From: a bacterium
Lineage (GTDB): Bacteria > Patescibacteriota > Minisyncoccia > Phycocordibacterales > Zambryskibacteraceae
Reading direction: 5' to 3'
Length of the DNA: 64,000 nt
Assembly: GCA_030649135.1 (NCBI GenBank)
Contig: JAUSGI010000008.1
Coordinates: 64,001 to 128,000, forward strand
Shown here: positions 9,604 through 46,088 of the stretch, piece after piece
Numbering within the stretch: position 1 is the stretch's first letter
How the letters are laid out: every line of letters begins with the position of its first letter
Program-made: the position numbers and the translations under genes
The notes under the pieces: generated by a model
Seen by the model: the letters and a program-made list of their open reading frames with translations, nothing else
The model's database searches: none
Told to the model about the DNA's origin: nothing

Positions 9604-11559
9604 TCACACGTCTAAAACGGCTTTTTTAGCGTTTGATTGGATGAAAGATTTGCGGGAAGGGACGTCGGTGCCCATGAGAATGTCGAAAATACGGTCCGCT
9701 TCTCTCGCATCCACAACAGTTACTTGTTTAAGAATTCTCGCTTTTGGATCCATGGTTGTTTCCCAAAGTTCTTCCGAGTTCATTTCCCCGAGACCTTTAT
9801 AACGTTGGATGTCGGCGCCTTCGATAGTCTTCTCGTTTTTTTCTTCGTCGGAATAGACATAAATAATTTCTTTCCCTTTTTTGATTTTATAGAGCGGCGG
9901 TTGAGCGATGTAGACATAGCCGGCATCGATGAGCGGTCTGAAAAATCTATAAAGTAATGTCAAGAGTAGAGTACGGATATGCGCGCCATCAACATCGGCA
10001 TCGGTGGCAATAATAATTTTGTGATAACGGAGTTTAGTGATATCAAAAGTATCCCCTATTGCCGTGCCGAAGGCGATGACTAGGTTTTTAATCTGTTCGC
10101 TCGCGAGCATCTTATCTAGACGCGCGCGCTCAATATTGAGAATCTTACCGCGCAAAGGGAGTATGGCTTGGATGCGTCTGTCTCTTCCCATCTTGGCGGT
10201 ACCGCCAGCCGAATCTCCCTCAACGATAAAGAGCTCTGCTTCTTCTGGGGTAGTGCCAGACTGGCAATCAGAGAGTTTGCCAGGCAGAGTCATGCCCTCA
10301 AGCGCTCCTTTGCGCAGGACTGAGTCCTTGGCCGCCTTGGCGGCTTTGCGCGCCTTGAGCGCGAGTACCACCTTCTGAATCATACTTCTGGCATCATCGG
10401 GATTTTCCTCAAGATAGGCAGAGAATGCGTCACCGAAGACGGTATTAACCATGCTCTGGGCCTCCACGCTACCGAGTTTTGATTTGGTCTGTCCCTCAAA
10501 TTGAATCTCACGCAATTTAATCGAAATGACAGCAGTCAGACCCTCGAGCGCGTCATCTCCGGTGAAGTTATCCTCCTTTTCACTCACCATATTATTCTTG
10601 CGGGCGTATGAATTTAGACTTCTGGTCAGGGCAGTCTTGAAACCGGTAACGTGAGTACCGCCTTCAGTAGTGTAAATATTATTGGCGAAAGGCAGGATGC
10701 GGGAAGAGATATCATCGACATATTGCAGGGCCACCTCCACTGTCTCGTAGTCGTTACCGTTCGCCTTCTTCTCAACATAGAAAATATTTTTATGTATCGG
10801 TTTGTTTCGCTCATTTTCGAATCGTACGAGAGATACCAGTCCCCCTTCGAAATAAAAAGACATGGAAGGTGTTTCCAGTCCCAACTCTCGTAGATAAAAG
10901 ACTTCGCTATCGGCAACTTTTGCTATCCCTCGGGCATCCAGGACCGATATGCGGAGACCCTTGACGAGATATGCCTGCTGGCGCAAATGATCGGCAATCC
11001 GTTCGAAGTTGAAGTTGGTATCCGGGAAAATAGCGGGGTCCGGTTGAAAGGTAATGACGGTACCATGGAGTTTTGAGGCGCCAATTTTCTTGACTGCACT
11101 TTTTCTTTTGCCCTGGCTGTACTCTTGAGCATAAACTCCCCCATCTCGGTGCACTTCGGCCCGGCAATAAATAGAGAGAGCATTGACTACCGAGCCACCG
11201 ACGCCGTGTAGTCCTCCGGAGATTTTGTATCCCTCTCCGCCGAACTTGCCGCCGGCATGCAGGGTAGTCATGATGGTCTCGAGTGCCGAGACTTTGGTTT
11301 GTTTGTGCGTATCAACCGGAATACCCCGGCCGTTATCAACCACGCGGACACGATTGTTGGGCAAGAGCACAACCTCTATATCGTCGGCAAATCCCCCCAT
11401 GGCCTCATCCCGAGAGTTGTCGAAAATCTCCGTCACAAGGTGGTGGAGGCCGTCGGGACCGGTGGTACCGATATACATGCCTGGACGTTTGCGCACCGGC
11501 TCGAGACCCTCTAAGACCGTAATTGATTCAGCGCTGTAATTGCTCTCTTTTTTCGGCAT
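9604..11559 (-). CDS. gyrB: DNA gyrase subunit B
   Basis: GHKL ATPase motifs (LVTEIFDNSRDEAM, GLHGVGGSVVNALS). Toprim and C-terminal domains. 651 aa. Confidence 0.95.
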   Translation of the reverse strand: MPKKESNYSAESITVLEGLEPVRKRPGMYIGTTGPDGLHHLVTEIFDNSRDEAMGGFADDIEVVLLPNNRVRVVDNGRGIPVDTHKQTKVSALETIMTTLHAGGKFGGEGYKISGGLHGVGGSVVNALSIYCRAEVHRDGGVYAQEYSQGKRKSAVKKIGASKLHGTVITFQPDPAIFPDTNFNFERIADHLRQQAYLVKGLRISVLDARGIAKVADSEVFYLRELGLETPSMSFYFEGGLVSLVRFENERNKPIHKNIFYVEKKANGNDYETVEVALQYVDDISSRILPFANNIYTTEGGTHVTGFKTALTRSLNSYARKNNMVSEKEDNFTGDDALEGLTAVISIKLREIQFEGQTKSKLGSVEAQSMVNTVFGDAFSAYLEENPDDARSMIQKVVLALKARKAAKAAKDSVLRKGALEGMTLPGKLSDCQSGTTPEEAELFIVEGDSAGGTAKMGRDRRIQAILPLRGKILNIERARLDKMLASEQIKNLVIAFGTAIGDTFDITKLRYHKIIIATDADVDGAHIRTLLLTLLYRFFRPLIDAGYVYIAQPPLYKIKKGKEIIYVYSDEEKNEKTIEGADIQRYKGLGEMNSEELWETTMDPKARILKQVTVVDAREADRIFDILMGTDVPSRKSFIQSNAKKAVLDV

Positions 11560-31954: not shown

Positions 31955-32398
31955 CTAGAATTGTACCATAGCGCCTATATCAATAAAGTGTCGAGCGCTA
32001 AATCCAGCCGGAAGTTCCAAGACGTATTGGACTACTTGATTGGGATAGAAAATTTGTGGAAAAGTATCCGGCGATACTTCCTTGTTTATATCAACAACAC
32101 GAAAATTATTATCAATCCAGACGATATCAATGGCAAAACGCATATCTTTCATCCAAAAGCCGTCTTGAACCGGATTACCAAATATAAAAAGCATACCCGT
32201 TCCTGCCGGAAGCGTTTTCCTACCCGACAAACCCTTGGCGCGCGTTTGCGGGGTATCAACTACCTCAACTTGTATGCTGGTATCGTTTATTTTTATAATT
32301 TTTGTCTGGCTTTCGGGAACTACTGGGCGGCTGAAGAACAGAAAAACTGACCCGAGTATAATGAGGAGTCCCAAGACAAGAAAGAAGAAATTCTTCAT
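31955..32398 (-). CDS. DUF192 domain protein
   Basis: MLFIF...FWMKDMRFAIDIVWID pattern of DUF192/COG1430. N-terminal TM. Confidence 0.6.
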   Translation of the reverse strand: MKNFFFLVLGLLIILGSVFLFFSRPVVPESQTKIIKINDTSIQVEVVDTPQTRAKGLSGRKTLPAGTGMLFIFGNPVQDGFWMKDMRFAIDIVWIDNNFRVVDINKEVSPDTFPQIFYPNQVVQYVLELPAGFSARHFIDIGAMVQF

Positions 32399-32412
32399 CT
32401 TTTTATTATAAC

Positions 32413-32437
32413 AAACCCCGCCAGAGGCGGGGTTTGT
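32413..32437. terminator. Hairpin AACCCCGCC-aga-GGCGGGGTT, intrinsic terminator candidate
   Basis: Perfect 9 bp GC-rich stem with a U-rich flank. Lies after the RRM gene. Confidence 0.55.
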
Positions 32438-32460
32438 TCACTAACTGCTTTCGCAGTTAA

Positions 32461-39119: not shown

Positions 39120-39195
39120 AATTTAAGGAAACATGCTTAATACATTTACGAGTGGTCTGCGCCACAAAAATATTCATAGGAGATCTAACGCACCC

Positions 39196-40905
39196 ATGGT
39201 GGCGAAAAAGCCTCATGACATCATTCCGACATTGGGAGAGAGCATTAGAATCATCCCGCTCGGCGGGGTGGAAGAAATCGGCAGAAACATGACCGTCATA
39301 GAATACGGCGAAGATATCATAGTCATTGATGCTGGCATTAAGTTTACCGACTATGAGACGCCAGGGGTCGACTATATCCTGCCTAATATTAAATATCTCG
39401 AGGAACGCAAGGACCACATCCGCGCCTTGGTGATTACTCACGGGCACCTCGACCACATCGGCTCCATCCCCTACGTCATTGACCGCCTTGGTAATCCGCC
39501 AATCTATACCCGTGAGTTTGGGGCCCTATTGATTCAGAAGAGGCAGGTGGAATTTCCCCACCTGGCGCCGCTTGATATCAGGATTGTCGAAGCCAACGAC
39601 ACTTCCATCCCGTTAACCGCCAATCTCAAGGTGCGCTTTTTCGGTGTTACCCACTCTATTCCGGATTCCACCGGTGTCATCATCGAGACCCCTTACGGCG
39701 ACATCGTCAATACCGGAGACGTGCGTATAGAGAACGAAAATGGCGTACCGGACCAGAGGGAAATAGAGCATTACAAAATGTTCAAGGACCGCAATATTCT
39801 GCTCTTTTGTATGGACTCGACAAACATCGAACAACCGGGCTTCTCGCTATCGGAAACTTTTATTTTGAAAAACATAGACGGGATTGTGGCCGCCGCGCCC
39901 GGCCGGATTATCTTAGCCACCTTTGCTACCCAAGTGGAGAGGGTGATTGAGTTTATCAAGATGGCCCAGCACTATTCGAGAAAAGTGATTATTGAAGGCC
40001 GCAGTATGAAAACAAATGTCGAGATTATCAAACATCTTAATCTCGTCGAAACCAGCCATATCATTCCGATTGAAGATACTACGAAGTATCCTCCCAACAA
40101 GATTATGATTATCACCACCGGCGCCCAAGGCGAAGAATTCTCCGCTCTGATGCGCATGTCCAACAAGACCCACAAATTTGTCCGTCTGGAACGTTCCGAC
40201 ACCATTGTGCTCTCTTCTTCCGCTATTCCCGGTAATGAACGCGCTATTTCCAAGCTGAAAGATAATCTCTATCGTCATGATTCAAAAATTATCACTTATC
40301 TTGATTCGGACGTGCACACCTCGGGCCACGGTAGGCGCGGTGAATTGGAGTGGTTACACAAGCAAATGCCGTACAAATATTTTATGCCGGTGCATGGCAA
40401 CCACTACAGACTAAAGATGCACGCCGAACTAGCCGCGAGACTCGGCTGTCCGCGCGAAAACATTATCGTGCCGGACAACGGCAGTATTCTCGAAATTCAA
40501 GACAAAGGCGCTAAGTTTGTTAAATTACGGGAGAAAGCGCCCTCGGAAGATATGGTGGTTGAGGGTCTTTCTATCGGAGATATTTCTGACGTAGTAATCC
40601 GAGACAGAAAAATGTTGGCGGAAGACGGTATTTTCGTAGTTATAGCCCTGGTGAACACGCGCACGGGCTATCTCAAAAAATCACCGGACATTATCGCCAG
40701 AGGTTTCGTCTACCTGCGGGAATCGCAGGAATTGCTTTCCGAAGCGCGGGGCATCATTAAGCGCTCCATCGAAGGCACCACCGTGGGTATGAATCCGATT
40801 AATTTTGATTACGCCAAGAACGCAGTCACCGAGGATGTCTCCCGGTTTCTCTTCCAACGCACAGCCAAAAAACCGATAGTTATTCCGGTCATCTTAGGAG
40901 TATGA
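39196..40905 (+). CDS. rnj: Ribonuclease J
   Basis: Metallo-beta-lactamase HxHxDH (VITHGHLDHIGS), beta-CASP and C-terminal domains. Start placed at MVAKKPH (the ORF track starts at 39133). Confidence 0.9.
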   Translation: MVAKKPHDIIPTLGESIRIIPLGGVEEIGRNMTVIEYGEDIIVIDAGIKFTDYETPGVDYILPNIKYLEERKDHIRALVITHGHLDHIGSIPYVIDRLGNPPIYTREFGALLIQKRQVEFPHLAPLDIRIVEANDTSIPLTANLKVRFFGVTHSIPDSTGVIIETPYGDIVNTGDVRIENENGVPDQREIEHYKMFKDRNILLFCMDSTNIEQPGFSLSETFILKNIDGIVAAAPGRIILATFATQVERVIEFIKMAQHYSRKVIIEGRSMKTNVEIIKHLNLVETSHIIPIEDTTKYPPNKIMIITTGAQGEEFSALMRMSNKTHKFVRLERSDTIVLSSSAIPGNERAISKLKDNLYRHDSKIITYLDSDVHTSGHGRRGELEWLHKQMPYKYFMPVHGNHYRLKMHAELAARLGCPRENIIVPDNGSILEIQDKGAKFVKLREKAPSEDMVVEGLSIGDISDVVIRDRKMLAEDGIFVVIALVNTRTGYLKKSPDIIARGFVYLRESQELLSEARGIIKRSIEGTTVGMNPINFDYAKNAVTEDVSRFLFQRTAKKPIVIPVILGV

Positions 40906-42053: not shown

Positions 42054-42061
42054 AAAAATTT

Positions 42062-42097
42062 ATAAAAAAATAGGACCCGCCAAGTAGGCCGGGTCCT
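42062..42097 (-). terminator. Intrinsic terminator GGACCCGGCCTACTTGGCGGGTCC + UAUUUUUUUAUA (minus sense)
   Basis: 8 bp GC stem followed by a U-run on the minus strand. Downstream of cassette gene 1. Confidence 0.65.
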
Positions 42098-42133
42098 GTG
42101 GCAGTTTGGGGAGGTCTGCCAACCTTTACTTCT

Positions 42134-42322
42134 CTACTCGGCGGGTCGGAACTTACGACGAGGCCGACTTTGTTTCAGGTCTTCGTCACACCCTACCATC
42201 TCCCTTTCTATCACATCCTGGTCAGAGAGGTCTTCATCCTCCGACCCATGCATCAGTCCAAAACCCTTAAGGAGTCGAATTTCCTTACTCGAAGGATCTA
42301 CGCCTGTCTTTCTCTTTTTCAT
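42134..42322 (-). CDS. Hypothetical small protein (62 aa), GC-rich island cassette 1
   Basis: SD AAGGAGCCCAG-ATG. TTGACAA -35-like element upstream. Confidence 0.45.
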   Translation of the reverse strand: MKKRKTGVDPSSKEIRLLKGFGLMHGSEDEDLSDQDVIEREMVGCDEDLKQSRPRRKFRPAE

Positions 42323-42446
42323 CTGGGCTCCTTATGTCCTGCTTCCCTTTCGATTATGTTCAGGGTGAAGGCTTACAGACACTAACGCTCTGTCCTTTAG
42401 AGTGGCATGAACAAGCTAGTTTGTCAATTAGTTGTAATCGTTGTAT

Positions 42447-42478
42447 AGAAAAAGGACCCTCCATGCTGGCAGGGTCCC
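42447..42478 (-). terminator. Intrinsic terminator GGGACCCUGCCAGCAUGGAGGGUCC + UUUUUCUAU (minus sense), preceded by a second hairpin at 42486-42505
   Basis: Hairpin followed by a U-run. Downstream of cassette gene 2. Stem-loop sequence related to the terminator at 43443-43479. Confidence 0.65.
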
Positions 42479-42555
42479 GTTGTGAGTTGAGGCCGTGTCC
42501 TCAACTCGTTTGTACTTAGGCGTGACATCGGCACGCATTGGGATCTGAAACTCTG

Positions 42556-42786
42556 CTAGTCCCCGATCGCCCCACTTCGTGAGAACGGGCGAGAGACGCC
42601 CGGTAACACCCGGGACGGATCCATCCCGAGGCGCTGCCTCAGCCACGCGACCCACTCCGGATAGCTCGGAGTGAGAAGCACGACGACCTCGTCGTAGGTC
42701 GGCGTGTCCCCAAGCACGTCGCACACGGCTGGCAAAAGAAGCCGGCGTGTTTCCTTGTCGAGTCTCCGACCCGATGCGTCATTCAT
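42556..42786 (-). CDS. Hypothetical small protein (76 aa), cassette 2
   Basis: SD GAGGAGAAGG before the ATG. Structured GC-rich leader. Confidence 0.45.
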   Translation of the reverse strand: MNDASGRRLDKETRRLLLPAVCDVLGDTPTYDEVVVLLTPSYPEWVAWLRQRLGMDPSRVLPGVSRPFSRSGAIGD

Positions 42787-42920
42787 TGCCTTCTCCTCAT
42801 CGCGCTTTGCGCGACTTTAAACATTTAGCAGTGCGTCCTCTTGCGAGGCCTATACGCACTGCGGTTCAGCCCCCTCTGTGCGGGGAATCGATACTTGATT
42901 ATATTTTCTTTCTCAAAGAA

Positions 42921-42977
42921 CTAACTGTTTCGCCCTTTCGGACTCATCAGCGCAGATACACATCTGCGAACAGCGGG
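42921..42977 (-). ncRNA. Candidate hammerhead ribozyme (type III topology, minimal)
   Basis: Minus strand 5'-CCCGCUGUU|CGCAGAU-GUGU-AUCUGCG-CUGAUGA-GUCC-GAAA-GGGC-GAAAC-AGUUAG-3'. Conserved CUGAUGA and GAAA cores. Helix I is a 7 bp hairpin. Helix II is GUCC/GGGC with a GAAA loop. Helix III is a 5 bp pairing of CUGU(U)/ACAG. Cleavage triplet GUU. Confidence 0.45.
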
Positions 42978-43019
42978 AAGTTTTGCTGAGATACTTCCCG
43001 AAACTCTGGGTTTGCACGG

Positions 43020-43340
43020 TTACCCCTTCTTCTTCTTGCTACCGGCACCCATGCCAGCGGCCATCCGGCGCTGCTCCTCCGCGCGCTCGCTCCGGTGGGC
43101 GAGGTAGCGCTTGTGCGCCGCCTCACGGATGGAGGCCGAGAACTCGGTCTCCTTCCGACGCCGCTCGGACAGCATGCGCCTGGCGCACGCCAGGCGTGGC
43201 CGCCAGAAATCGGAGGTCGCGAGTTGCTTGTCGAGCTCGACCGCGGCGATATCCGCCGCAACGGTCGAAGTGGCGACCTGCACCGGCAGGGTGCAGGCCA
43301 GAAACTCTATCACTCGGCCAATGGAGCGTGTCGCATTCAT
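43020..43340 (-). CDS. Hypothetical protein (106 aa, helical, basic C-terminal tail), cassette 3
   Basis: SD AGGAG. Promoter TTGACAA-17-TATCAT upstream. Confidence 0.5.
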   Translation of the reverse strand: MNATRSIGRVIEFLACTLPVQVATSTVAADIAAVELDKQLATSDFWRPRLACARRMLSERRRKETEFSASIREAAHKRYLAHRSERAEEQRRMAAGMGAGSKKKKG

Positions 43341-43402
43341 GGCGTTCTCCTTATCGTGCCTCCCCTTCGTCTATACTTAGGGTGAGGACTTTCTAGCTAC
43401 AA

Positions 43403-43430
43403 TGATAGCATAATACAACTTATTTGTCAA
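43403..43430 (-). promoter_or_regulatory. Sigma70-like promoter TTGACAA-N17-TATCAT for cassette gene 3
   Basis: Consensus -35 with 17 bp spacing. About 60 nt upstream of the ATG at 43340. Confidence 0.55.
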
Positions 43431-43442
43431 TGGCTTTAAATA

Positions 43443-43479
43443 GTTAAAAGTAAAAGGGCCCTCCGTGTAGGCAGGGCCC
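43443..43479 (-). terminator. Intrinsic terminator GGGCCCUGCCUACACGGAGGGCCC + UUUUACUUUUAAC (minus sense)
   Basis: Downstream of cassette gene 4. Homologous to the 42447-42478 terminator. Confidence 0.65.
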
Positions 43480-43498
43480 AGTCGAAACGCCACCTAGT

Positions 43499-43894
43499 CT
43501 AGTAACTGGTGGGGAAAGCAGATGTCAGCGCCTCCCCCTGGTCGCTTGCCGGGTTGGGGTTGAACCAAACCCGAGAGATGGACCCATGGCCGATGTGATA
43601 CACGCCGGCCAGAGTACATGAGCCATCCCGCTGTGCGGGGTGATGTACGAACACCCCGAAACGCAGACGGGCCAGCGCGGCCGCGATGCAGAACGGCACA
43701 TCCGCGACGGCATAGACGAAGCCATCGCCATGCTCGCGGACGTAGTCCGCGAGCCCATCCGTGGTGACGAACACCGTGGGGTCCTTCACGATCTCCACGT
43801 AAACACCGTGGAGAGTTCGCATCGCCCGCCGCTGTGTGGGCGACATGTCGTAACGCGATAACCAATAAATCCTCCCGATGTAAATTCTGTTCAT
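43499..43894 (-). CDS. Hypothetical protein (131 aa from MNRIYIGRIYW...), cassette 4
   Basis: The ORF track starts at 43969, but that ATG lies inside the promoter. The ATG at 43894 has SD GGGAGG...GGGGGAACC. Contains DGSCTLAGVYHIGHG (possible Cys/His catalytic pair). Confidence 0.5.
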   Translation of the reverse strand: MNRIYIGRIYWLSRYDMSPTQRRAMRTLHGVYVEIVKDPTVFVTTDGLADYVREHGDGFVYAVADVPFCIAAALARLRFGVFVHHPAQRDGSCTLAGVYHIGHGSISRVWFNPNPASDQGEALTSAFPTSY

Positions 43895-43959
43895 GGTTCC
43901 CCCACTCTGCCTCCCATTTCTCGGAGGGCTATAGGTAATACAACCTTGGTCTGCTCTCA

Positions 43960-43988
43960 CTAATAGCACAGCACAATTCTCTTGTCAA
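43960..43988 (-). promoter_or_regulatory. Sigma70-like promoter TTGACAA-N17-TATTAG for cassette gene 4
   Basis: Consensus -35 with 17 bp spacing. Lies at the island boundary with the AT-rich DUF2231 gene region. Confidence 0.5.
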
Positions 43989-44002
43989 CAGCGTCCATAA
44001 AT

Positions 44003-44438: not shown

Positions 44439-46088
44439 TTATTTCTTATTTTTTATTATAGCTTTTATAAAAGCCGTGAAAAGAGGGTGGGGGGAAAGAG
44501 GTCGCGCTTTGAACTCCGGATGAAATTGCGTTGAGAGATAAAATGGGTGAGCATTTTTAGACAATTCAGCTATTTCGCAAAGTCTCCCGTCTGGAGACAT
44601 GCCGGAGAAAATCATGCCTGCCTTATTAAGTCTTTCAATATAAGCAGGATTAACTTCAAAACGATGCCTGTGTCTCTCGGAAATTTTATTTGTCGCGTAG
44701 GCCTTGTGGGCAAGAGTCTTTGGTTTAAGAACCGCCGGCCAAGCACCCAGGCGCATGGTGCCGCCAAGTTTACCGTCTTTAATTTTATCTTTCTGCTCTT
44801 CCATGACATCTATCACCGGGTATTTGGTTTCTTTATCTACTTCCGTAGTGTGTGCACCCTTGAGACCGGCCACATGCCGTGCGTACTCCACTACCGCCAG
44901 TTGCATACCGTAACAAAGCCCGAGATACGGAATCTTCTTTTCCCTCACAAACTTAATTGCGCTGATAATGCCCTCCACGCCGTTGGAACCAAAACCACCC
45001 GGCACTATCACTCCATCGTAATTTTTAAGTTCACTTACTTTGCGTTTACCCGTCTCGTATTCTTTGGCATTTATCCAGACTAGTTTAGGCTTCACGCTTT
45101 GCCAATAGGCAGAGAATTTGACAGCTTCTATAACCGACACGTAGGCATCGGAGAGCACAAAGTCTCCGGTGTCGAAATATTTACCTACTACCGCAACCCT
45201 CACTTCCCTCTTGGCGGACTTGGTTTTAGAAACAAATTTTTTCCAGGCGACTAAATCCTTTTTGCGTGGTTTGAGACCGAAGTGGCCGAGAATCCTTTGA
45301 CTTAACCCGTCCCGTTCAAAATTTATCGGCACATCATAAATACTTTCGATATCCGGCGCTGCAATGATATCCTCACTCGACACGCCCGTGGCCAGAGCGA
45401 TTTTCTCCTTCCGCTTCTGGTCAATCGACACCTCGCTTCTTGCGATAATCATGTCCGGTTGGATACCGTAGGAATTGAGTTGGCGGATAGCATTTTGGGT
45501 AAGTTTGGTTTTCATCTCGCCGAGCTTGCCCGGCACAGGAAGATAAGAGACCATCACGAACATAACGTTTCTTGGTTCTCGAATTTTCATTAGGCGGGCT
45601 GCTTCGAGAAAAATGGCATTCTGATATTCGCCGACCGTACCGCCGATTTCGAGTACGGTAATATCCGCATTAGTTTTAGAAACTGAATGATGAATACGAT
45701 TGAATATCTCTTCCGTTACGTGATAGACCGGTTCCACACACTTGCCGTTGTATCCAAGAGCGCGCTCTTTATCTATAACATGTTTAAGAATCATGCCATT
45801 GGTCAGATAATTTTCCGAAGGCATATCGGCATTGAGGAAACGTTCGTAATTGCCCATATCCTGGTCAGTCTCAAGACCGGAATCCAGCACAAAGACTTCT
45901 CCATGTTCGACCGGATTCATGGTGCCGGCATCGACATTTAAATAAGGGTCAGCCTTGATCAGACTGACCGAGAAACCTTTTGACTGGAGAATGGCGCCAA
46001 TAGAGGAGGTGGCGATACCTTTGCCGACTCCCGACATTACTCCGCCCACGACAAAGATATATTTATACCGACCTTCCTTTTTTCTCAT
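44439..46088 (-). CDS. pyrG: CTP synthase
   Basis: YIFVVGGVMSGVGKGI... Glutamine amidotransferase C-terminal domain. 549 aa. Confidence 0.95.
   Translation of the reverse strand: MRKKEGRYKYIFVVGGVMSGVGKGIATSSIGAILQSKGFSVSLIKADPYLNVDAGTMNPVEHGEVFVLDSGLETDQDMGNYERFLNADMPSENYLTNGMILKHVIDKERALGYNGKCVEPVYHVTEEIFNRIHHSVSKTNADITVLEIGGTVGEYQNAIFLEAARLMKIREPRNVMFVMVSYLPVPGKLGEMKTKLTQNAIRQLNSYGIQPDMIIARSEVSIDQKRKEKIALATGVSSEDIIAAPDIESIYDVPINFERDGLSQRILGHFGLKPRKKDLVAWKKFVSKTKSAKREVRVAVVGKYFDTGDFVLSDAYVSVIEAVKFSAYWQSVKPKLVWINAKEYETGKRKVSELKNYDGVIVPGGFGSNGVEGIISAIKFVREKKIPYLGLCYGMQLAVVEYARHVAGLKGAHTTEVDKETKYPVIDVMEEQKDKIKDGKLGGTMRLGAWPAVLKPKTLAHKAYATNKISERHRHRFEVNPAYIERLNKAGMIFSGMSPDGRLCEIAELSKNAHPFYLSTQFHPEFKARPLSPHPLFTAFIKAIIKNKK

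Follow-up and report, generated by a model that had tools for sequence, protein, structure and literature searches.

A 64,000-nt stretch of contig JAUSGI010000008.1 (assembly GCA_030649135.1, built from SRR13727527; Patescibacteriota, Zambryskibacteraceae), hereafter the window, very probably encodes a genuine type III hammerhead ribozyme which is predicted to cleave itself. The element lies on the minus strand between two small genes, gene 3 and gene 2, of an accessory island (Table 1), and we propose, at a probability of about 0.72, that it is part of one gene 3-gene 2 RNA and that its cleavage splits this RNA into two mRNAs. A first-pass annotation, made from the letters of the window, had already described a hammerhead-like motif at this junction with a cut after U42969. 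This proposal is borne out by a match to the Rfam hammerhead family, by a covariance model that had not seen the window copy and by ~90 relatives (loci other than the window are given as L numbers) that covary in three helices. Re-read on the minus strand from 42977 to 42921, the sequence is CCCGCUGUU-CGCAGAU-GUGU-AUCUGCG-CUGAUGA-GUCC-GAAA-GGGC-GAAAC-AGUUAG, an exact match to what had been written down before.

The invariant hammerhead core is complete (C3 U4 G5 A6 N7 G8 A9, G12 A13 A14, A15.1-U16.1 and an H17 that is not G) and its parts stand in the correct order, as first described. The core-adjoining pairs are intact as well: C42968-G42951 (N1.1-N2.1), G42943-C42932 (G10.1-C11.1) and A42928-U42970 (A15.1-U16.1). 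An intact invariant core with intact core-adjacent pairs served as acceptance criterion in Perreault 2011 (PMC3088659). Helices I and II are capped by loops and helix III is open, which is the topology of a type III hammerhead. Helix I was found to be the perfect 7-bp hairpin that had been claimed. Helix III had been given five base pairs; four of them, all Watson-Crick, stand, but the fifth (G42974.U42924) is more probably part of an 8-bp hairpin directly upstream, which we call P0. The minimum free energy (MFE) fold of the 71-nt region 42915-42985 is a three-way junction, with a folding energy that is ordinary for its composition (z = -1.09), as is usual in RNA this small. By every structural criterion that could be tested the element is a type III hammerhead; the only criterion on which it falls short is the Rfam score cut-off.

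In Rfam the element matched RF00008 (Hammerhead_3) with 37.5 bits (E = 1.4e-6 on 501 nt, 6.1e-6 on 2.2 kb and 1.8e-4 when the full 64 kb were compared with all 4227 families), and under E-value reporting this was the sole meaningful non-tRNA match of the window. The covariance-model search had been named beforehand as one check on the prediction, and its score came out above noise though below the curated threshold. A default scan with gathering thresholds returned five tRNAs and nothing else, because the score of the hammerhead lies under the threshold of its family. This gathering score is a curation cut-off and not a structural feature, and relatives of the element straddle its 48.5 bits (L059 54.5, L017 52.6, L029 52.1 and 48.8, L062 50.5, L039 48.8); the low score of the window copy is attributed to its GUU site, a U.G wobble in helix II and the short helix III. 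A leave-one-out covariance model, R2, built from 42 relatives without the window copy and its nearest look-alike, gave the window copy 71.9 bits (E ~5e-20), and everything else in the window stayed at or below 11 bits.

Relatives were searched for with a 24-nt core pattern (CTGATGAGYCCGNRAGGRCGAAAC) in one genome per bacterial or archaeal species. The pattern was found at 53 loci, compared with roughly 0.1 expected by chance according to our own estimate. The label Patescibacteria was carried by 37 of the 53 (Saccharibacteria, Parcubacteria/Paceibacterota, Shapiro-, Ames-, Kaiser-, Taylor-, Doudna-, Wolfe- and Uhrbacteria, Minisyncoccia), and a few of the loci are hammerheads of other types. 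The flanks, on which the pattern has no hold, revealed one architecture: a hairpin, CUGU followed by C, U or A, a 7-bp stem I with a GUGU cap, the core and ACAG. The two helices unconstrained by the pattern were 99.6% (helix I) and 96.7% (helix III) paired in 36 in-register copies, with compensatory changes in 6/7 and 3/5 pairs, respectively. None of 500 shuffles matched the observed covariation score, and pairing fell to 31-46% when the 3' partners were shifted by 1-3 columns as a control. A model made from the in-register copies gave 86 matches within the fetched loci; copies that it found off the original pattern added covariation in helix II (GCUC/GAGC, GUCG/CGAC, GGCC/GGCC, GUCA/UGAC and GUCU/AGAC), and compensatory changes overall affect 13/16 pairs in all three helices. 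Judged by sequence and pairing, ~90 non-identical relatives and the window copy form one family.

Family statistics were taken over 90 members, no two of them identical. At the cleavage site 68 of them have C, 14 have U, 8 have A and none has G; core position 7 is free to vary, and helix II in its GGGC form is also seen in L037. Loop 1 reads GUGU in 44/90 and GNGU in most of the remaining members, its closing pair is U-A or U-G in 85/90, and loop 2 is GAAA or AAAA. Natural type III hammerheads need loop-loop contacts for fast cleavage at cellular Mg2+ (PMC6155905), and the conservation of loops 1 and 2 suggests tertiary contacts as in full-length natural hammerheads. Three weak points conceded in the first-pass annotation look different against the family: the GUU triplet shares its U with the 14 members just mentioned, a helix III of 4-5 bp is the rule across the family and has a hairpin next to it in 79/88 members, and a "minimal form without loop-loop contacts" seems unlikely, given a loop 1 conserved family-wide and loops that match the architecture of two small records of 322 and 366 nt (see below). 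In the viral database IMG/VR the pattern matched 42 records, and ~20 phage-size viral contigs have the family architecture, some of them in arrays; the exact 24-mer core had no match in viral contigs and the degenerate pattern was needed. Identical hammerhead regions were seen in a Phycisphaerales metagenome-assembled genome (MAG; L013 216-274) and a Wolfebacteria MAG (L032 4505-4563), and nearly identical ones in a Polynucleobacter MAG (L014) and a Saccharimonadales MAG (L025). This suggests that L013 and L014 are mis-binned Patescibacteria contigs.

Several points weigh against a cleavage that splits the gene 3-gene 2 RNA. In a 246-nt context, the MFE fold pairs ACAG with G-CUG of the core and not in helix III, and hammerhead folding at this locus may depend on context. 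The 37.5 bits of the window copy are 11 short of the RF00008 gathering score, and the copy combines three weaker features, namely the rarer cleavage-site U, the U.G wobble in helix II and a helix III of 4 bp. Only a single hammerhead is present in the 64-kb window, no integrase or recognisable phage gene was found among the genes checked around the island, and the fit to the published prophage-array context is partial. Promoters and terminators, as reported below, were sought by simple consensus scans. Finally, cleavage could destabilise rather than stabilise the gene 2 message, because the genome encodes an RNase J (39133-40905 in the window) and a 5'-OH end of the kind left by the glmS ribozyme is said, in work by Collins from 2007, to be a target of RNase J1.

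Some of these features are also what would be seen in a decayed or very slow copy, which would reach no useful cleavage rate in the cell and leave genes 3 and 2 to be co-translated from an intact bicistronic mRNA. The cleavage-site U, the wobble, the 4-bp helix III, the 11 bits missing from the Rfam score and the competing pairing in the longer fold all speak for such a copy, and slow natural variants were reported by Perreault 2011 (PMC3088659). We nevertheless consider decay unlikely. In a neutral relic core changes are expected, but all invariant core bases and core-adjoining pairs are intact, and the GUGU of loop 1, the P0 hairpin and the trailing motif described below are all kept; a cleavage-site U is found in 14/90 relatives and the GGGC strand of helix II also in L037.

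The hammerhead is accompanied by further conserved elements on both sides. A perfect hairpin of at least 5 bp that ends no more than 5 nt from helix III was present in 79/88 members compared with 37% of control windows, and for hairpins of at least 6 bp the values were 61/88 and 18%. The stems of P0 differ in sequence and are unrelated between family members, and helix III is only 4-5 bp long across the family; P0 probably stacks on this short helix. The motif AGAGUUU lies directly 5' of P0, and (A)GAGUUU(Y) is found at the same position in a subfamily (L053, L056, L060, L051, L034 and L019). On the other side the trailing motif GUUCUUUGA follows, whose UUCUUU forms a small hairpin with the AAAGAA that comes next (UUCUUU-GAG-AAAGAA, 42920-42906). 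Its pattern, [GA][AT]TC[TC]TT or G(U/A)UCUUU(G/C)A, occurs within ~30 nt downstream in 37/90 members compared with 3.2% of control windows. By inspection, GUUCUUU (42913-42921) is complementary to AAAGGAC, which comprises loop 2 and the 3' strand of helix II in the consensus, and in the window it could pair with AAAGGGC (42932-42938) if two wobbles are allowed; by inspection, too, the motif is unchanged in several copies with an altered helix II, e.g. L042:4664 and L043:1577. As an established pairing this complementarity was dropped, since it does not covary. A function of the trailing motif as -35 box was rejected as well, since by inspection it is followed, in the window and in those relatives that were checked, by no acceptable -10 box at a distance of 16-18 nt.

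The pairing is kept as part of a minor alternative, in which AGAGUUU and GUUCUUUGA re-pair and thereby switch the ribozyme or P0, so that cleavage would be conditional and the ratio of gene 2 to gene 3 expression regulated. Both motifs are conserved beyond the needs of the hammerhead fold, the longer fold contains competing structures and, besides GUUCUUU with AAAGGAC, also GAGUUU can pair by inspection with AAACUU or AAAC(C)UC of P0. A switch of this kind seems to us quite improbable, since the trailing motif stays constant in copies with different helix II (the two named above) and has no support from covariation, the motifs are missing in most phage copies and in more than half of the family, and no ligand-binding-like domain or known riboswitch was found.

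The genomic surroundings bear on the question of what cleavage would achieve. The hammerhead lies in an island from ~42060 to 44000 with 55-65% GC, compared with 43-50% GC around it. The island is bordered by an MFS transporter gene on one side and a DUF2231-like gene next to pyrG on the other, and the flanking genes are housekeeping genes; the pyrG product, CTP synthase (44439-46088), shares 82-89% of its residues with counterparts in MAGs of Candidatus Zambryskibacteria and the Parcubacteria group, which places the window in a Patescibacteria genome. Three units are arranged on the minus strand of the island: promoter-gene 4-terminator, promoter-gene 3-hammerhead-gene 2-terminator and promoter-gene 1-terminator. 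The site at 43402-43430 is the only strong promoter-like site upstream of gene 3 on this strand, and from the stop of gene 3 (43020) to the start of gene 2 (42786) the consensus scan detected neither a terminator-like nor a promoter-like site. The hammerhead thus stands where the other units have their terminator, which agrees with the earlier description. Behind each of the other three gene ends stands a GC-rich hairpin with a U-tract, and the terminator-like hairpins of the cassettes are alike including the loop (GGGMCCCU-GCCnnCAyGG-AGGGKCC-UUUU). The four island proteins had no match in Pfam, PHROG, NCBIfam, PADLOC or a PDB sequence search, and no homologue of gene 2 was found among 5.8 billion proteins. 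The island borders were searched for direct repeats and for att-like sites, with nothing informative as the outcome, and a circular-RNA or retrozyme-type element was rejected, there being a single ribozyme and no repeats.

Table 1 Features of the hammerhead locus and its transcription unit. Positions refer to the window unless a locus is named; hammerhead positions are given 5' to 3' on the minus strand where written in descending order.
Feature	Position	Strand	Description or basis
Promoter of gene 3-gene 2 unit, sigma-70 type (putative)	43402..43430	-	TTGACA-17-TATCAT with upstream TG, 11/12 consensus
Gene 3	43020..43340	-	open reading frame (ORF), 106 aa, basic C-terminus
Upstream motif AGAGUUU	43001..43007	-	directly 5' of P0
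Accessory hairpin P0	42974..43000	-	CGGGAAGU, 11-nt loop, ACUUCCCG; 8 bp, gapless to helix III
Type III hammerhead ribozyme (predicted)	42921..42977	-	sequence, Rfam match, fold, family model, family covariation
Helix III, 5' strand	42973-42970	-	CUGU; four Watson-Crick pairs with the 3' strand
Cleavage-site base H17	42969	-	U17; predicted cut between U42969 and C42968
Stem-loop I	42968-42951	-	whole element
Stem I	42968-42962 with 42957-42951	-	CGCAGAU/AUCUGCG, perfect 7-bp hairpin
Loop 1	42961-42958	-	GUGU
Core CUGAUGA	42950-42944	-	C3 U4 G5 A6 U7 G8 A9
Stem-loop II	42943-42932	-	whole element
Helix II	42943-42940 with 42935-42932	-	GUCC/GGGC, 4 bp, G10.1-C11.1 and one U.G wobble
Loop 2	42939-42936	-	GAAA
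Core GAA	42931-42929	-	G12 A13 A14
Helix III, 3' strand	42928-42925	-	ACAG
Trailing motif	42913..42921	-	GUUCUUUGA
Structured leader of gene 2	42787..42892	-	three hairpins, then Shine-Dalgarno GAGGAGAAGG
Gene 2	42556..42786	-	ORF, 76-aa ORFan
Terminator-like hairpin and U-tract of gene 3-gene 2 unit	42449..42478	-	GGGACCCU-GCCAGCAUGG-AGGGUCC-UUUUU
Terminator-like hairpin, gene 4	43479-43446	-	similar
Terminator-like hairpin, gene 1	42097-42064	-	similar
Terminator-like hairpin, L105 cassette	~10490-10525		similar, with U-tract

Gene 2 was said to have a long structured leader, and this is indeed found: the three hairpins are UCCCC/GGGG(G), GCAGUGCGU..ACGCACUGC with an inner CCUC-GCAA-GAGG, and GUCGCGC/GCGCGAU. 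The leader had no Rfam match. In the closest relative, L105, the same chromosomal site contains a single 452-nt cassette, in which a promoter is followed by a ~105-nt leader, an unrelated ORF of 71 aa and a similar terminator. The leaders of window gene 2 and L105 (10158-10262, plus strand) are ~88% identical, whereas the coding parts do not align. Since the leader is served by a promoter in L105 and by gene 3 plus the hammerhead in the window, the hammerhead junction takes a place that is held by a promoter elsewhere. No further copies of the leader came up in two metagenome scans, and it is known only from the window and L105/L106; other genes occupy the same chromosomal site in several relatives. 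The conserved terminator-like hairpins together with the conserved leader suggest a hot spot beside pyrG, at which cassettes share fixed ends and differ in their ORFs.

Gene 3 has six homologues (50-71% identity) on Parcubacteria-type contigs at nine loci, and no hammerhead was found at any of these. At least in L004, the gene 3 homologue is followed by a terminator-like hairpin of its own. Downstream of two homologues, at a distance of ~128 nt, there is a tRNA-Asn with the anticodon GUU (L004 10446-10517 and L005 819-890); the copy in L005 has two mismatched acceptor-stem pairs. The idea that tRNA and ribozyme are equivalent processing signals was dropped because of the terminator-like hairpin between gene and tRNA in L004. 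Other gene 3 homologue loci (L006 356-367, L007 465-476, L009 22-33 and 552-563) carry a different conserved junction element, CUUCAACUGAAYUC, a hairpin and GUUCUnnGAAG, which could be another processing or regulatory signal; its tail resembles GUUCUUUGAGAAAG downstream of the window hammerhead.

The following course of events is proposed for the gene 3-gene 2 unit. Transcription from the promoter at 43430-43402 would cover gene 3, the hammerhead and gene 2 and end at the terminator-like hairpin (42478-42449). During folding of this RNA, U42969 would attack the adjacent phosphate with its 2'-OH and break the chain between U42969 and C42968. The upstream product would be a gene 3 mRNA with a 2',3'-cyclic phosphate, ending 5 nt past P0 and thus resembling a terminated transcript. 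The downstream product would be a gene 2 mRNA that begins with a 5'-OH within stem I and continues with stem-loop II, GUUCUUUGA, the conserved leader and the Shine-Dalgarno sequence. In this way the ribozyme would be the RNA-level equivalent of the terminator plus promoter at the other junctions, and stability and translation of the two messages would be uncoupled. We infer that cleavage takes place in vivo, that the structured ends stabilise both products and that uncoupling of the two genes is its purpose.

The same cleavage could, in principle, end gene 3 without serving gene 2: the 5'-OH end would let RNase J degrade the downstream RNA and dislodge the polymerase, so that the ribozyme would be a surrogate terminator and gene 2 expression low. 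The terminator position that the hammerhead occupies, the RNase J gene in the window and the glmS work, according to which ribozyme 5'-OH products are reportedly RNase J1 substrates, would fit. But the new 5' end would be paired in a 7-bp stem and have no single-stranded overhang, and a good Shine-Dalgarno sequence and an ORF follow shortly downstream in the window and in many relatives, which indicates that the downstream RNA is meant to be translated. Moreover, L011 has six ribozymes with ORFs in between, all located between one strong promoter and one terminator-like site. A role as terminator seems very unlikely to us. Splitting of one transcript into two translated messages is the reading we prefer.

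Co-directional arrays of 3-6 copies are present in relatives (six in L011, five in L019, four each in L026 and L043). The array copies lie between small, mostly unrelated ORFs, many of which have a Shine-Dalgarno sequence. Promoter scans covered two arrays, L011 and L043: a promoter with 12/12 consensus positions was found upstream of the six copies of L011, where a strong terminator-like site follows the small ORF past the last copy, and one with 11/12 upstream of the four copies of L043. An all-against-all BLAST of 239 hammerhead-flanking ORFs gave small clusters only, mostly from related contigs, and no window gene recurs in them. Among ten array-flanking proteins, the only matches were to a helicase and to sigma-70 region 4. 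Some array copies have core changes: U4 is changed to C (CCGAUGA) in L026 2598-2656, L020 5376-5434 and L021 3663-3750, and L011 5100-5158 and 5814-5872 read CUGAUGA-CGGC-GAAA-GCCA-GAAAC, with a C/A mismatch at the core-adjoining pair (by inspection). These copies may be slow, inactive or tolerated variants.

Hammerheads in bacteria have been known since 2010-2011, and their use to split transcripts is already known in bacteria and phages. Perreault 2011 (PMC3088659) described clustered bacterial and phage hammerheads which flank single genes and which, in vitro as well as in vivo, divide long transcripts into RNAs of gene length, and such hammerheads were also the subject of de la Pena and Garcia-Robles 2010, as cited in PMC6155905; the purpose of bacterial hammerheads is described as still largely unsettled (PMC6765202). 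The window resembles the prophage clusters in that the hammerhead is canonical, intergenic and co-oriented with small flanking genes of unknown function within one transcription unit and that its inferred role is the processing of a long transcript to gene-length mRNAs; the relatives form arrays laid out as in Perreault 2011. Unlike these clusters, the 2-kb island carries only one hammerhead, and the genes checked around it include no integrase or recognisable phage gene; the host belongs to the Patescibacteria, and in this family a conserved hairpin abuts the very short helix III and the flanking motifs are conserved as well. A literature search, which is known to be incomplete and thus weak evidence for novelty, gave no paper that links hammerheads to Patescibacteria or the candidate phyla radiation.

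A near-identical architecture is found in type III hammerheads of small circular plant RNAs (sTRSV, sLTSV): an open helix III, a stem I of 6-7 bp with GUGU or GCGU, a helix II that reads GUCC-GAAA-GGAC and the same core. The IMG/VR records L102 (322 nt) and L072 (366 nt), which from their size we take to be plant virusoid or satellite RNAs, scored 74 and 69 bits with the Patescibacteria model and have the same loops; L078 (359 nt) has the textbook core with a GUGA loop. In virusoids and satellite RNAs the ribozyme cuts the rolling-circle multimers of a circular RNA genome. In the window, by contrast, one ribozyme lies between two protein genes of a DNA genome, and there is neither a further ribozyme nor a repeat that would delimit a circle.

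The locus also resembles an insulator of the RiboJ type. RiboJ, ascribed to Lou et al. in 2012, is reportedly a sTRSV-derived hammerhead plus hairpin placed between promoter and ribosome-binding site. In the window, too, cleavage would remove the upstream RNA and leave a structured 5' end before a hairpin and a Shine-Dalgarno sequence, which would make downstream expression independent of what lies upstream; the window element is natural, though, has a GAAA and not a GUGA loop and a different stem I, and its P0 would also shape the 3' end of the upstream gene. Two short scaffolds of 'Bacterium D16-36' that the core pattern also picked up, L016 8-31 (RAYF01000220.1) and L057 718-741 (RAYF01000201.1), contain a GUGA-loop hammerhead core followed by ctctacaaataattttgtttaa. 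This combination is presumably the synthetic RiboJ insulator, and both scaffolds are probably vector or construct contamination. That the window element is itself a chance resemblance, hammerheads being short, or a RiboJ-type insulator from a cloning vector, for which the two scaffolds with their RiboJ-like core might be cited, is effectively refuted by E ~5e-20 with a model blind to the window sequence, by stem I, loops and flanks that fit the natural Patescibacteria family and not RiboJ, and by the position of the locus within a 217-kb contig and by its presence, between normal genes, on a separate Logan contig of 6.9 kb.

More tentatively, and with odds that we put well below even, the hammerhead might be the catalytic centre of a module of ~95-100 nt (AGAGUUU, a hairpin on a short helix III, the hammerhead and GUUCUUUGA). 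This module would be widespread in accessory-gene arrays of Patescibacteria and in some phages; as a cassette boundary at the RNA level, it and a terminator-plus-promoter junction could replace one another. The window and L105 would then have captured such an exchange of boundaries, because the same leader stands after a promoter in one and after a ribozyme in the other. If this were true, operons punctuated by ribozymes would be a common form of organisation for the variable ORFan genes of ultrasmall bacteria, and the module itself might move between cassettes. The natural comparison of the window with L105 provides a testable hint that a ribozyme substitutes for a terminator-promoter junction. 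The lineage pattern is that of one well-defined type III family concentrated in Patescibacteria, often in arrays of up to six copies. The accessory hairpin, which abuts a 4-bp helix III, would give the upstream mRNA a terminator-like 3' end, which suggests how ribozymes can shape both of their products. The definition of a hammerhead is unchanged by these findings; their value lies in the annotation of Patescibacteria genomes and in a compact experimental test system.

Outside the island, the window contains a sub-threshold match to Rfam STnc370, an enterobacterial small RNA, in an intergenic gap at 32374-32442 on the plus strand (43.3 bits compared with a gathering score of 54, E = 0.0088).

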